Shown: positions 15,560 to 64,000 of the stretch, one piece after another
How the letters are laid out: each line of letters starts with the position of its first letter
Numbering within the stretch: the stretch's first letter is position 1
Assembly (NCBI GenBank): GCA_030390025.1
Contig: CM059427.1
Span: forward strand, 99,138,001 to 99,202,000
From: Squalus acanthias
Taxonomy: Eukaryota
DNA: 64,000 nt
Reading direction: 5' to 3'
Program-made: the position numbers and the translations under genes
Notes under the pieces: model-generated
The model's database searches: none
Seen by the model: the letters and a program-made list of their open reading frames with translations, nothing else
What the model was told of the DNA's origin: nothing

Positions 15560-16049
15560 GATCCAGGCCGGTGTTTGGAGCTCGCTCTCTCCCTCTTCCC
15601 CCCGCCCCCGGGAGTCGGTGCTTGTACACGCCGGGCTGGCGGATTGTAGTTGGTTCTCGGCTCATTGGGAAGATGCTCGGCTTGCTCCGAGCCCAGACAT
15701 ACTCTTTCATTGCCCGGTGCCCCCGCTCACAGGGGGCGGTGTAACATTGAACCCACTGCACGTCTGCAGCTCCCAGGAAGAAGGGAATTAATGGCATTCA
15801 ATCCCCGAGCTCGCACTCTTCACACACCTGAGTCTGTCTCTGTGCTGCATCCTGTATAAAGTCGATTTACGCACACCTAGGATCCGCCTGGTGTCGGATG
15901 TTCCGCCGCTGATCCGCCTGGTGTCGGATGTTCCGCCGCTGATCCGCCTGGTGTCGGATGTTCCGCCGCTGATCCGCCTGGTGTCGGATGTTCCGCCGCT
16001 GATCCGCCTGGTGTTGGATGTTCTAGGAACAGAGGCGGTGGAAGGAGCC
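15560..16049 (+). promoter_or_regulatory. CpG-rich candidate alternative promoter and 5' UTR of the long AGAP isoform
   Basis: Local CpG/GC enrichment against an AT-rich background, GC box CCCCGCCCCC near 15598-15609 and TATAAA at 15855-15860, directly upstream of the coding exon. Confidence 0.6.
15881..16023 (+). repeat. 30-bp minisatellite, about 4.8 copies, each unit carrying a mini-uORF
   Basis: GATCCGCCTGGTGTCGGATGTTCCGCCGCT x4 plus a partial fifth unit. Confidence 0.97.
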
Positions 16050-17553
16050 ATGTACCTGCTGGACAGCGAGCCGTACCCCGAGATGATGAAGAGGGGGACT
16101 CCTCAGAGGAAGACTGTCTATCGGATCTCCCTCACTCTCGTCAAACGGGAGGCCACCACGGCCGAGGCCGGCGGCAAACCTTCTCATTCTCCCCGATCCG
16201 AAGCTTGTCCCGACAGTGCCCACCAGCCTGGGAGCCCGTGTCAGGCCGAGTGTAGCGAAGCTGAGGACGAATTCGAGCCGCAAGCGAATCTTCGGAGCTT
16301 TCGGACCTTCAGCACCGGCCACCTGGAACTGGGCAGGCTGAAGGTGGCCAGGAGGTCCCGCGATTTGGGCTTCAAACTCAAGGACAATCCATCCAAAGAC
16401 CTGGTCACATTAAGGCGCAGAGATGGGACTTCAACCAGACCGAGCAGCATGCTGGCGACGGTGGATGTGGAATTAAAGAACAAAAAAAATTGGAGCCCTT
16501 GCACTGAGGGGTTGAGGACAGGGGCTCAACCCAGAGAACAGGTTACTGGGACTATCAATATCTCAAACCAGGGAAAGGACCACCAAGGAGGCAGAGGTTG
16601 CACTGAAGGAAGTGAACAAGGAGATGCGGCCAGAGCCATTTGTGTGAAGGAGCTCACGGCACCTTTACAGTCCATTGATACAGAGGCGCTTTATCCAAGG
16701 AAATCACCAAGAGCAGATGGCAAATCGGCTTTGAGGAAAATAGAGACAACCATCAAAAGAAACTCAAATGATTCATTGAAGAGTCCTTTAGGGGATAAGG
16801 AGCTAATCACAGTGTCATCTCCTGGTTCAGAGCCTGACTTTTCTAAGCAACTTGTTCCTAAAGGAGAGTATGGTTTACTATCAGTAGCCCCTGTAGTGGG
16901 ATCATCTCTGCCATCTGATTGTTCATCCATTTGCATAGATGCCATCAAACAAACTCCCCCGACGTCTTTGGCAACAGACAAGAGGCATCCAAGTTTACTC
17001 AGAAGAAGCTTCAGTTTCAGGCACTGGAATGGAGAACTAGTGAGGTTTAAAGCGTTATCAAAGACAAAACATCATGGCAGCTCCAGCTGTCTCTCTGGTG
17101 TGGAAGCTGGAAGTGAATTCAAAATCCAAAAGCCCGAGTCTTCCTGTGGGGAATCTTTAACGAATGAGAAGCGGAACACCTTGGATGTTGGGGAAGTGCT
17201 GAACAAAACGGATCCACTCTCCGAGCCTGGACGTTGGGAGAGGGGGAAAAGAAAGAACAGGACTTTAGACAATAGTGACATTCACAAGCTTTCTGAAAAC
17301 CTGGAGATGGGGAAGGATGGCTTTTTAACAGGTGCTGTGAGGTCCAGTTCCCAAGAGCACAAACTCTTCAGGTTTTTTAGTGGTATTTTCTCAAAGCGCG
17401 ATGGTACTTCAACACCTGTTACAAGTCCTTATGGAAAATCACACAGGGATTATGTTGCCAAATCCAAAGGATATGCTAGCAGCCAGAAGAAGGGTATACC
17501 AACCCTTGAGCAGTCCAGCAGTGAGAGCATTGATGAAAATACTTCTCAAAACG
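16050..17553 (+). CDS. AGAP1: Alternative long first coding exon of an AGAP ArfGAP (PIKE-L-like N-terminal extension, about 501 codons)
   Basis: Long open frame. Motifs QRKTVYRISLTLVKRE, KNRTLDNSDIH and KLFRFFSGIFSK correspond to PIKE-L RRTTTYLISLTLVKLE, KSKTLDNSDLH and KMLKFISGIFTK (from memory). Donor G|GTATGG after 17553 leaves phase 1, giving G+AT=Asp with the 60659 exon. The start could be ATG 16050, 16083 or 16086. Confidence 0.82.
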
Positions 17554-18565
17554 GTATGGCATTGATGGTGTTTTGCTCTTTGATGAAACTGTGTAACGTC
17601 TGATAACTTAGAAATTTTCTGAAAATTTGTTCAGTAGGTTTGCATGATTTCACGTAACCTAACAAGTCTTCAAAAAATAAATAGATAGAGGACACCACTG
17701 GGTTGCAAATCAGAAGGTTAACAAATGGTTACTGGGGTCCTATATTAATGTAGATAGGAAACAATGAATTAATGAAATACATTACCGTACTGTGTTTAAG
17801 TCAGTTAGGAGGAAATGTTGGCCTTAATAACTGGTGATGTATGATTGACGCTGAGGTGTTTTCTACAGTAGCACGAGGGTTTTTAGTTCTGAGCATGTAA
17901 ACACCTCATGGATTTTATGCCATCCCTTTTCAGACGAGAGAAAAACCCAGACAATTAGCTTTGAGATGGCAGGTACTTTTTGTGCATTCAGTAATCCACA
18001 TGATGGGTGCTGGGAAGCTTGTAATTGCAGGATGAAAATATGTTAAGTGTGGCATTTTATGAGCAGCAGAAGGCAACAATTTTGTGAAATTGTACGGAGG
18101 AGTATTTTATTTCATTGCAGTTGTCTGGGTTTCTACTACACAAATAAATAATAATTTGGTGTATGAAATATTTGAGATAGAAATAATGTCTTCAGTTGAA
18201 TTTTTATCATTCATTTGGCTAAAATTGAGAAATGAGAATTGTGTGCATTTCTATTTAGCCCTTGTGTATTGGATAGCTTTTATAATTGTGAGACATGTAT
18301 CCTGTAATATCTACAAAAATATTTTCAGTAAATTGCTAAATTTGAATGCTTTAAATGAAGTTTGAAATGTATAGGATCTTGAAACTTAAAAACACATTAT
18401 TCTCTCACCCAACATTTCTTTAGTTTTAAATCTCCCCATTATATGCTACACACTATTCTCTGTAGTTATTATATTTTGGGTATAATCATAACTGACTGAC
18501 AAATGAAAATGAGTTTATGGTTGCAAGGTATTAATCAAATGTGCACTTTTGAAAGAGAGAAAATA

Positions 18566-60717: not shown

Positions 60718-61409
60718 GTGAGTACTGTCACCAGCACGTTCAAATAAGGACATGGGCGTGATTCCAACAAAAATAATCTTCCTGGCCGGTTCCGATGATG
60801 TCCTGAACACTAAGTGTGAAGCTTGACTGTTTTTATTTTGTTGTCTGAATCCTTGATGAGATTATTTTCATTATGCTCTCTTTTTTTACTCCATCTTTCC
60901 AATTTACCCACCGAGGTATTGGAAAAGTACAGTGACCGTACTTCATTCTAATTTCTGCCGCAGATATTGACTGGCCTGCTAAGTGTTTTCAGCACTTTCT
61001 GTTCTTTATTACTTCAGAGAGGTTCTATCATGTAATTGTCTTTTTCTCTTGATACGTCTGATCTGTATGTGTGGTGTGTCGATTTGATCACTCTAACTTA
61101 TAGTGTGTATTATTGGTTTTAAAACTGCTACTGTAAAATAGAACTGCTAGTATTTTCCGCATTTGATATGGAATTGGCTGCTCAGTTATTAATTAGAAGA
61201 ATGATTTTGTAAAAAAATAAATTACTTTCCAAATTGTAGAATTTTGTTAGGTGCCTGCAATTTTTGTTGATTAAATGAGCAAGGCTAGGTTATGGAAGTG
61301 GTTTCTCCATAACCTGAGTTTAGAAATAAACTAAATCATCAAATGTTTTTATTTTTGTGTGTGACAGAAAAAGATTTATTTGAGCAATGGAACAACTTGA
61401 GTGGAACCT

Positions 61410-61885
61410 CTGACTCTGGCTCGCTCTCGCCCTGACTCCGGCTCGCTCTCGCCCTGACTCCGGCTCGCTCTCGCCCTGTCTCCGGCTCGCTCTCGCCCTG
61501 TCTCCGGCTCGCTCTCGCCCTGTCTCCGGCTCGCTCTCGCCCTGTCTCCGGCTCGCTCTCGCCCTGTCTCCGGCTCGCTCTCGCCCTGTCTCCGGCTCGC
61601 TCTCGCCCTGTCTCCGGCTCGCTCTCGCCCTGTCTCCGGCTCGCTCTCGCCCTGTCTCCGGCTCGCTCTCGCCCTGTCTCCGGCTCGCTCTCGCCCTGTC
61701 TCCGGCTCGCTCTCGCCCTGTCTCCGGCTCGCTCTCGCCCTGTCTCCGGCTCGCTCTCGCCCTGTCTCCGGCTCGCTCTCGCCCTGTCTCCGGCTCGCTC
61801 TCGCCCGGGCTCCGGCTCGCTCTCGCCCGGGCTCCGGCTCGCTCTCGCCCGGACTCCGGCTCGCTCTCGCCCGGGCTCCAGCTTG
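61410..61885. repeat. 22-bp CpG-rich minisatellite, about 21-22 copies
   Basis: Unit CTCCGGCTCGCTCTCGCCCTGT, with variant units at both edges. Confidence 0.96.
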
Positions 61886-62882: not shown

Positions 62883-63310
62883 AAAAGCTAATGGAATGTT
62901 GGCCTTTATCTCGAGGGAACTAGAATACAAATGGGTGAAAGTTATGTTAGTTATATAAAGCTCTGGTTAAACCCTAGCTGGAGTAATTGCATTCAGTTTT
63001 GGGCACCACACCTCAGGAAGGATATCTTGGCCTTGGAGGGGGTGCAGCGCAGATTCACCAGAATGATACCGGGGCTAAAAGATTGTATAATTAGGCTTCT
63101 ATTCTCTTGAGTATAGAAGATTAAGGGGTGATCTAACTGAGGTGTTTAAGATGATTAAAGGATTTGATAGGGTGGATAGAGAGAAACTATTTCCTCTGGT
63201 GGGTGAGTCCAGAACAAAGGGGCATAACCTTAACATTAGAGCTAGGCTGTTCAGGGGTGATGTCAGGAAGCACTTCTTCACGCAAAGGGTAGTGGAAATC
63301 TGGAACTCTT
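62883..63310 (+). mobile_element. CR1 LINE fragment interrupted by the LTR element
   Basis: AAAGCTAATGGAATGTTGGCCTTTATC...CACTTCTTCACGCAAAGGGTAGTGGAAATCTGGAACTCT, then an abrupt break. Confidence 0.88.
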
Positions 63311-63504
63311 TGTGGTAACACAATACAGCTTCCTGTGACTCGAACTTTATTGCATCACTTCCTGTGATTAGTCCAGGATAAATACTGGACTGATCAGTTG
63401 AATCCTGGAGAGGCATAGAGTAAGACCTCTTTTGTATGTAGCACCTTTTTAGTTGATTAAAGCTTACTTTAAGTTCACCACGCGTAAGGCTCATTCTTAC
63501 GACA
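63311..63504 (+). mobile_element. 5' LTR of a Ty3/Gypsy retrotransposon (194 bp)
   Basis: Starts TGTGGTAA exactly at the CR1 break and ends TTACGACA (7/8 terminal inverted repeat, TG...CA). Contains ATTAAA at 63456-63461 and lies upstream of gag. Confidence 0.78.
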
Positions 63505-63582
63505 ATTTAATCAACTTTGAAAAACTTCGCACTCAAACTTTTTGAACGAACTCGGAACTAAGGATCCAGGGAATCACCCATC

Positions 63583-64000
63583 ATGGAAAACATCCTTAAA
63601 CCATCGCGTCTTGACTTGGACCCAAACACCCCAGCAGCCGGTAAGGTGTGGAAACACTGGTATCGCACGTTTGACAATTTTCTCGAATATTGCAAGGCTG
63701 ATGATGACTCAAAATTGCGGATACTCATCAACTGTGTCACCCCGAATGTATTTCAGTATGTCGAGGAATGGGGCAGTTACGAGGAGGCAATTCGGACGCT
63801 TAAAAGACTATATACTAAGACACCGAATGAGGTCTATGCCAGACATCTACTAGCTACAGCCCAACAAGGGCCGGAGGAATCCATTGATAAATTCCTCCAA
63901 GAGCTTCGCAGACTTAGTATGGACTGTAACTTTCAGGCGGCCTCAGCTGAGCTGTACCGTGAAGAAATGATCCGTGATGCTTTCATCTGCGGGCTTGCCT
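63583..64000 (+). CDS. gag: Ty3/Gypsy gag N-terminus, open to the window edge (139 codons)
   Basis: MENILKPSRLDLDPNTPAAGKVWKHWYRTFDNF...ARHLLATAQQGPEESIDKFLQELRRLSMDCNF...EEMIRDAFICGL contains the QxxxESxxxFxxxL gag homology motif. It is missing from the ORF track, presumably because no stop lies inside the window. Confidence 0.88.
   Translation, partial: MENILKPSRLDLDPNTPAAGKVWKHWYRTFDNFLEYCKADDDSKLRILINCVTPNVFQYVEEWGSYEEAIRTLKRLYTKTPNEVYARHLLATAQQGPEESIDKFLQELRRLSMDCNFQAASAELYREEMIRDAFICGLA

Follow-up and report, generated by a model that had tools for sequence, protein, structure and literature searches.

Self-priming of reverse transcription has been demonstrated in the fission-yeast element Tf1 and is, among Gypsy elements, regarded as a mark of the Tf1/sushi chromoviruses. 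It is established for LTR elements that minus-strand synthesis must begin beside the 5' LTR, and in Tf1 the first 11 bases serve as primer, with RNase H cutting between positions 11 and 12 (both according to PMC7175516). Tf1 and Tf2 from Schizosaccharomyces pombe, Tj1, Tosmo1-3 and the Tf1/sushi elements share the Ty3/Gypsy domain order with the element described here, and the Tf1/sushi group resembles it in having a primer-binding site (PBS) next to the 5' LTR that is complementary to a segment of the LTR and not to a tRNA (as described in PMC7175516, PMC4600332 and bioRxiv 2022.12.06.519325); the length of the core, 11 nt, is also the one given for Tf1 (PMC7175516). Self-priming has further been predicted from PBS-LTR complementarity for the plant Ty1/Copia lineage TAR (Houba, Osr-1) and for moss Tcn1, which, in contrast to our element, belong to another superfamily or to the chromoviruses and live in plant hosts, and the same source predicts it for 12% of plant elements, Copia TAR included (PMC6317226). 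Since TAR lies outside the chromoviruses, this prediction implies that a recurrence of self-priming would not be unprecedented. A tRNA-type PBS is likewise absent from fungal GalEa, which has a Conserved Hairpin Site (PMC5445492), and from Dictyostelium Skipper, which has a polypyrimidine site (PMC5006619), but according to these sources the inverted repeat of GalEa lies within the internal region and the Skipper site has no complement in the LTR.

The element studied here lies near the end of the window, i.e. the whole stretch of 64 kb of Squalus acanthias DNA that was analysed, at 99138001-99202000 of contig C3. It is of the Ty3/Gypsy type, 4,433 bp long, and its 194-bp LTRs show one difference in 194 positions (99.5% identity); a neighbouring stretch, L031, spans the whole element (LTRs at L031 112-305 and 4351-4544). 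A sequence-only reading of the window had claimed that the element carries no TGG-initiated PBS but an exact 11-nt complement of its own LTR, and this is confirmed in the sequence, the positions given for the CA, the spacer, the PBS and the arm all being exact on re-check, with TTAGTT at 63449-63454. The CA of the LTR end (63503-63504), whose position is set independently by the 3' LTR copy outside the window, is followed by the spacer A (63505) and then by the PBS TTTAATCAACT (63506-63516), the reverse complement of the LTR arm AGTTGATTAAA (63451-63461). The duplex comprises 11 Watson-Crick pairs, nine A-U and two G-C, and is not extendable, the next pair being mismatched on both flanks. In the 64-kb window the PBS 11-mer occurs twice, only at the arm and PBS sites, as compared to 0.06 expected occurrences, and two occurrences were reached in none of 100 shuffles. 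Folding of 63451-63516 yields -15.3 kcal/mol (z = -3.64), a value equalled in 1 of 200 shuffles, and the loop of this fold holds a hairpin at 63483-63501 with seven pairs including one G-U. The CGTAAG/CTTACG hairpin that had been claimed for the loop is thus there in the fold, but it is family-specific: no constant counterpart is found in the relatives (23 families), and we do not regard this U5 hairpin as a conserved element.

Table 1. Features of the element and its surroundings (positions refer to the window unless L031 is named)
Feature	Position	Strand	Basis
Left copy of the target-site duplication, 5 bp, CTCTT	63306..63310	+	Same 5 bases after the 3' LTR in L031
5' LTR, 194 bp, TG...CA	63311..63504	+	99.5% identity with the 3' LTR (L031 4351-4544, outside the window)
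TTAGTT, initiator-like; putative start at A63451	63449..63454	+	INR consensus TCAKTY (as given in PMC3601003); A/G conservation in relatives
LTR arm, 11 nt, predicted self-primer	63451..63461	+	Exact PBS complement; covaries across families
ATTAAA, poly(A)-signal-like hexamer, 3' end of the arm; putative function	63456..63461	+	Hexamer counts in 23 families
Short predicted hairpin right after the arm, at the putative cleavage point	63462..63474	+	MFE fold; weak
U5 hairpin, 7 pairs, CGTAAG/CTTACG	63483..63501	+	MFE fold
LTR-to-PBS spacer, 1 nt (A)	63505..63505	+	A in 23 of 26 families
PBS without TGG	63506..63516	+	Same in 99 of 100 listed of 1,200 genomic junctions
gag start, 288 aa in this copy, runs past the window end	63583..64000	+	Reading frame
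pol (PR-RT-RH-IN, YLDN, without chromodomain), after gag	L031 1234-4332	+	Pfam scan

The element is bounded by the CTCTT target duplication, its 3' LTR is preceded by a purine tract (L031), and the domains follow the order gag, then PR-RT-RH-IN, as seen in a Pfam scan of the pol protein (P0002), the top PDB sequence match of which is Ty3 Gag-Pol (E 3e-61). No env-like frame is present among the open frames of the L031 element. In this copy pol lies in another frame than gag, which stops after 288 codons; as all 506 codons compared are read through in 20 of the 30 best-matching copies, the copy at this locus is probably frameshifted. A pattern in which the PBS was left open found 1,200 LTR-PBS junctions of the family in the 3.7-Gb S. 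acanthias genome, and one identical PBS is present in 99 among the 100 junctions listed. The element represents a young and very abundant family of this genome.

Several observations concern the family and the surroundings of the insertion. A tandem array of the same family (contig C1:562278-575212; L242, L243) consists of four LTRs and three internal units with a period of 4,247 bp and has a single 5-bp target duplication at its bounds. Near-identical element sequence occurs in sequencing runs (X1-X15) of five organisms. These runs also contain a subtype of the LTR that differs at about ten positions and has an unaltered 11-nt arm. Of 16 runs listed, the single one with raw RNA reads gave no read on the element, and the contigs of the others, which may derive from RNA or from DNA, show neither ends nor poly(A) loose ends. 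The insertion site is the 3' part of a LINE copy (window 62900-63310), which we take, from its motifs, to be of the CR1 type, and 1.5 kb downstream there follows a further LINE RT frame, 532 aa in length (L031 6008-7606). Elsewhere in the window there are a 22-bp tandem repeat of about 21 copies with a core that is 98% identical (61400-61880) and a perfect 30-bp tandem repeat (15881-16015) that opens a 570-codon frame (15891-17603).

For comparison across families a metagenome scan was carried out with the pol alignment, the gag alignment being too divergent for a scan, and 80 of 565 confirmed stretches were kept. The gag start was located in 36 of 81 loci, L031 included; five loci were dropped, either for want of a recognisable LTR (L045, L061, L091) or with less than 100 nt upstream (L056, L062), L076 was added, and removal of six same-family copies reduced the resulting 32 loci to 26 families. 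The LTR end was defined by an LTR pair in 12 of the 26 families and by eye, at the CA before gag, in 14, and as the by-eye ends were set after the inverted repeat had been seen, they carry a bias toward the pairing result. For scoring, pairs were counted from the second base past the CA, which was taken as the fixed inner end, i.e. position 1 is the inner edge and position 11 the outer end of the arm (A63451 here). Pairing of the PBS with its own LTR reaches 10-11 of 11 in 24 of the 26 families (11 in 17 families, 10 in seven, 9 in one and 5 in one, the last being L087, which is apparently degenerate), with 22 distinct PBS 11-mers among the 26 families. When LTRs were swapped between families, scores of at least 10 were obtained in 76 of 650 cases, and a single one of the 636 pairs with non-identical PBS attained 11/11; with shuffled LTRs at least 10 was reached in 13 of 5,200 cases. 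The families with a pair-defined LTR end score at least 10 in 11 of 12 cases. Resolved by position, Watson-Crick pairs are formed in 23-26 of 26 families at positions 1-11, in 22-23 at positions 12-13, in 18-19 at positions 14-16 and in 5-9 at positions 17-20. The spacer is an A in 23 of the 26 families, and since in 25 of them it makes no Watson-Crick pair with the base that follows the arm, the inner edge, which would be the 3' end of the primer, is constant.

In a MAFFT alignment made independently for 20 loci, in which L050 and 19 of the 26 families are represented (L038, L044, L076, L085, L087, L088 and L099, mostly mismatch-bearing, were left out), two-sided changes are found at 13 of 16 pairs, amounting to 61 cells as compared to 17.7 after shuffling, in counts that ignore relatedness and include the close kin L033, L034 and L036. 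The covariation of this alignment, 0.541, exceeds both the 0.157 of shuffled versions (0 of 500) and the values obtained by sliding, which do not go beyond 0.136. All 20 rows form pairs 1-10, 19 rows form pair 11 and 12-17 rows form pairs 12-16. L050 and L054, two copies of one family, differ by one compensatory change with both sides matched. A second, older family of the clade in the same genome (L182-L211) has the same 11-nt core within a 12-bp duplex and scores at least 10 in 26 of 30 loci, taking the best of one to three candidate ends per locus, and TGG-PBS elements of this genome, which we take to be Mag from their gag and PBS motifs, score 6-7 against their own LTR (3/3). Covariation between LTR 11-mer and PBS, which the sequence-only reading had put forward as a check, is thus observed across the families as well as in the alignment, and these comparisons strongly support a pairing that is clade-wide, real and maintained by compensatory change.

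The letters of the arm, counted in 23 families (without L038, L076 and L087), are constrained. Position 11 is an A in 21 of the 23 families, position 10 a G and position 9 a pyrimidine in all 23, and the last six bases read ATTAAA in nine families, AATAAA in five, GTTAAA in four and otherwise in five. The consensus of the initiator (INR) is TCAKTY (PMC3601003), and the arm can be read as an AG(T/C) of initiator type running directly into a hexamer that resembles a poly(A) signal, both assignments being putative. The sequence after the arm begins with RCCT in 14 of the 23 families, and the stem predicted there measures 3.65 bp versus 3.02 bp in shuffled sequence, with at least four pairs in 12 families; this excess is weak, and we make no claim for a second, conserved hairpin at this place. 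In the MFE folds of the 23 families local hairpins are predicted, and the two further duplexes known from the Tf1 "pretzel", in which a PBS flank pairs with the LTR, are absent. A TATA-like GATAAATA can be read at 63377-63384, and a scan for bacterial promoters, irrelevant here, was empty.

Homologs of the element are present in crustaceans, cnidarians, Trichinella, Trichuris, flukes, molluscs, insects, a spider and a catshark, and no relative was found in the viral contigs searched. Their RTs commonly carry YxDN, i.e. 96 of 120 homologs, with YxDD in 17 and an unmatched motif in seven; in P0002 the motif is YLDN (residues 343-346). The second Asp of YxDD is normally a catalytic carboxylate. 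The family of the present element has YLDN instead of YxDD, yet counts 1,200 young junctions. Neither Chromo nor SH3_Tf2-1 was recognized in P0002 at E<=0.01 or in any of 17 full-length homologs at E<=0.05, and neither is listed in the precomputed domains of the 120 homologs; a chromodomain is also missing in some chromoviruses (PMC6317226). The gag protein (P0003) has no Pfam match, and its model is helical and capsid-like (pLDDT 81.9) with weak PDB matches to dArc1 (E 2e-3) and PNMA2 (E 3.9e-3), none of them reaching E <= 0.001. The gag profile recognizes Mag-type gags at six loci with E values from 6e-32 to 9e-11, gives nothing better than E 0.8 on five chromodomain-bearing polyproteins and is also strong on two multi-element chelicerate gene models; a double zinc-knuckle layout is found in 71 of 120 gag homologs.

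Trees of the RT-RH region comprised no authentic Tf1, sushi or named Mag reference (Mag, SURL, Gulliver), and env-bearing retrovirus-like loci from an SH3_Tf2-1 search of the same genome served as outgroup; the 62-row tree was calculated in quick mode, and five rows were dropped for short coverage. In these trees the self-complementary families and the named homologs come together as one group on a long stem, with an SH-aLRT of 97 for 62 rows and of 100 for 26 rows. In the 26-row tree this group is sister to, and not within, the TGG-PBS Mag-like elements (SH-aLRT 94), a position unresolved in the 62-row tree. In the best trees the clade falls outside the rows that carry a chromodomain. In the AU test a pairing with P0252 is rejected (p 0.04), and pairings with P0254 (0.155), with P0262/P0267 (0.26) and with the whole chromovirus branch (0.29) are not. 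A DUF4939 search of the same genome for sushi-type references was empty and uninformative. Loci L162-L170, on several contigs, are retrovirus-like proviruses with a YVDD RT and a long, envelope-like third frame after pol. The earlier view that gag and element are not sushi-like is supported by the missing chromodomain, the Mag-type gag and the best tree, but it is not settled statistically, as three of four chromovirus placements have AU p values of 0.16-0.29. Domain content and gag thus support the clade not being a member of Tf1/sushi, with a tree that does not reject chromovirus affinity.

Compared to Tf1/sushi elements the clade is without chromodomain and SH3_Tf2-1 (0 of 18 proteins), has a Mag-type gag and a YxDN RT and is hosted by animals; the LTR is 194 bp here, the loop measures 21-77 nt in the clade, no three-duplex pretzel appears in the MFE folds and the arm doubles as poly(A)-signal-like hexamer. 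With the Mag lineage (A, B and C clades), represented by the TGG-PBS elements of the same genome, it shares the gag profile and the double zinc knuckle, and in the 26-row tree it is sister to these elements. Nevertheless, the Mag-like elements of the same genome have a TGG tRNA-type PBS 3-6 nt after the LTR without an LTR complement (3/3), carry YxDD and show an RT-RH identity of only about 27-31%, with a long stem between the clades. Candidate prior names are MolGy1-16, PolGy and LGF, large metazoan Gypsy clades outside the named lineages (PMC6238403, PMC8556966, PMC8220671), and Schistosoma Saci-2, which is described as having an unusual zinc motif in its gag and as standing in a unique position (PMC2582038), and the clade, compared with these by description only, may already have been named as MolGy, PolGy or Saci-2. 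The term "PBS" is absent from the main text of both MolGy papers (PMC6238403, PMC8556966), and no sequence motifs by which the clade could be named were found in four of the five supplementary files of the mollusc paper (PMC6238403). In the full-text literature searched, outside of which lie most subscription papers, Repbase and GyDB, neither self-priming in a chromodomain-less animal Gypsy clade nor a YxDN Gypsy RT was found.

Based on these findings we consider it likely that the element primes reverse transcription with a stretch of its own LTR, similar to Tf1, and not with a tRNA, since the sole complement of the PBS tracks the own LTR from family to family and the first 11 bases of Tf1 provide a precedent. 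The predicted mechanism would then, with good probability, be the known self-priming logic at work in a further clade. Following the example of Tf1, transcription would start at or just before A63451, and the first 11 nt (up to about 16 in some families) would then pair back with the PBS. Cleavage after 63461, probably through the RNase H that the element encodes, a domain identified in pol by the Pfam scan and of predicted activity, would create a 3'-OH to be extended through the spacer, U5 and the remaining R. The PBS would later be recopied from the primer during plus-strand synthesis, which would explain the matched changes on both sides, and starts that now and then lie further upstream would account for the decaying pairs at positions 12-16. 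As the arm ends in a poly(A)-signal-like hexamer, its duplex would also mask the poly(A) signal in the 5' LTR, whereas the copy in the 3' LTR would be left free. We infer start site, cleavage and priming step from the sequence and from Tf1, and three observations fit less well: pairing continues past position 11 in most families (12-13 in 22-23 and 14-16 in 18-19 of 26), unexplained by a start fixed at 11, the TATA-like sequence at 63377-63384 could shift the start about 40 nt further upstream, and the two additional pretzel duplexes are missing from the MFE folds.

A tRNA-free primer could also be provided in a way that differs from Tf1, i.e. by the arm copy in the 3' LTR, if the RNA was cut just past the poly(A)-signal hexamer and this end, of the same or of a partner RNA, primed at the PBS. 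The same arm is present in the 3' LTR, where the preceding U3 would account for the pairing at positions 12-16 (18-23 of 26 families). However, after such a cut the 3' end would retain hardly any R sequence with which to carry out the first strand transfer, and the initiator-like AG(T/C) is located exactly at position 11, beyond which pairing falls from at least 19/20 to 12-17/20, rendering this route unlikely. We deem it quite unlikely, too, that the duplex solely masks the 5' LTR poly(A) signal against premature polyadenylation and that another primer is used. Masking would agree with an arm that ends with ATTAAA, AATAAA or GTTAAA in 18 of 23 families and with a PBS partner that exists solely at the 5' LTR, but for masking the partner need not begin one base past the CA, the place from which minus-strand synthesis must set out, and yet it does so in the 12 pair-defined families. 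Moreover, the element has no alternative primer site, and pairing is maintained, with compensatory changes, even at a poor hexamer (TGAAGA in L077). Masking can, however, come as an additional function of this duplex.

Priming by a host RNA of the same sequence, e.g. a tRNA half or fragment or another small RNA, would make the LTR match secondary. Half-tRNA priming is known in Copia lineages (PMC6317226), and the set of host tRNAs compared is small (63 matches at 30 loci, representing seven distinct sequences and two isotypes), but mature tRNA ends need TGG and the PBS starts with TT or TC in 26 of 26 families; in addition, 22 different 11-mers each track their own LTR, and the top match among the seven host tRNA sequences of two isotypes is 7 of 11. 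A host primer is thus very unlikely. Chance complementarity in AT-rich sequence, with which the nine A-U and two G-C pairs of the duplex would be compatible, is refuted by the controls with swapped, shuffled and slid sequences, by the count of the 11-mer and by the z-score of the fold, and its probability is practically negligible.

Returning to self-priming in the manner of Tf1, we tentatively propose, at slightly less than even confidence, that an animal Gypsy clade, widespread and still multiplying, gained this ability independently of Tf1/sushi from tRNA-primed Mag-like ancestors, that the start of R, where an initiator and a poly(A) signal are joined, became the primer, and that one 11-nt duplex both primes and silences the 5' poly(A) signal, in elements with a YxDN RT. 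The natural compensatory pairs constitute a ready test set for priming, and 1,200 near-identical junctions in a vertebrate-sized genome should provide abundant RNA for end mapping. Annotation tools that depend on a tRNA match would overlook such elements, which would presumably also escape control by tRNA fragments directed against the PBS. Whether self-priming originated repeatedly or is ancestral and was lost is a question raised in PMC3601003; a second self-priming Gypsy clade, pan-animal and with a Mag-type gag, would mean that tRNA-free priming either arose again or is ancestral with repeated loss.
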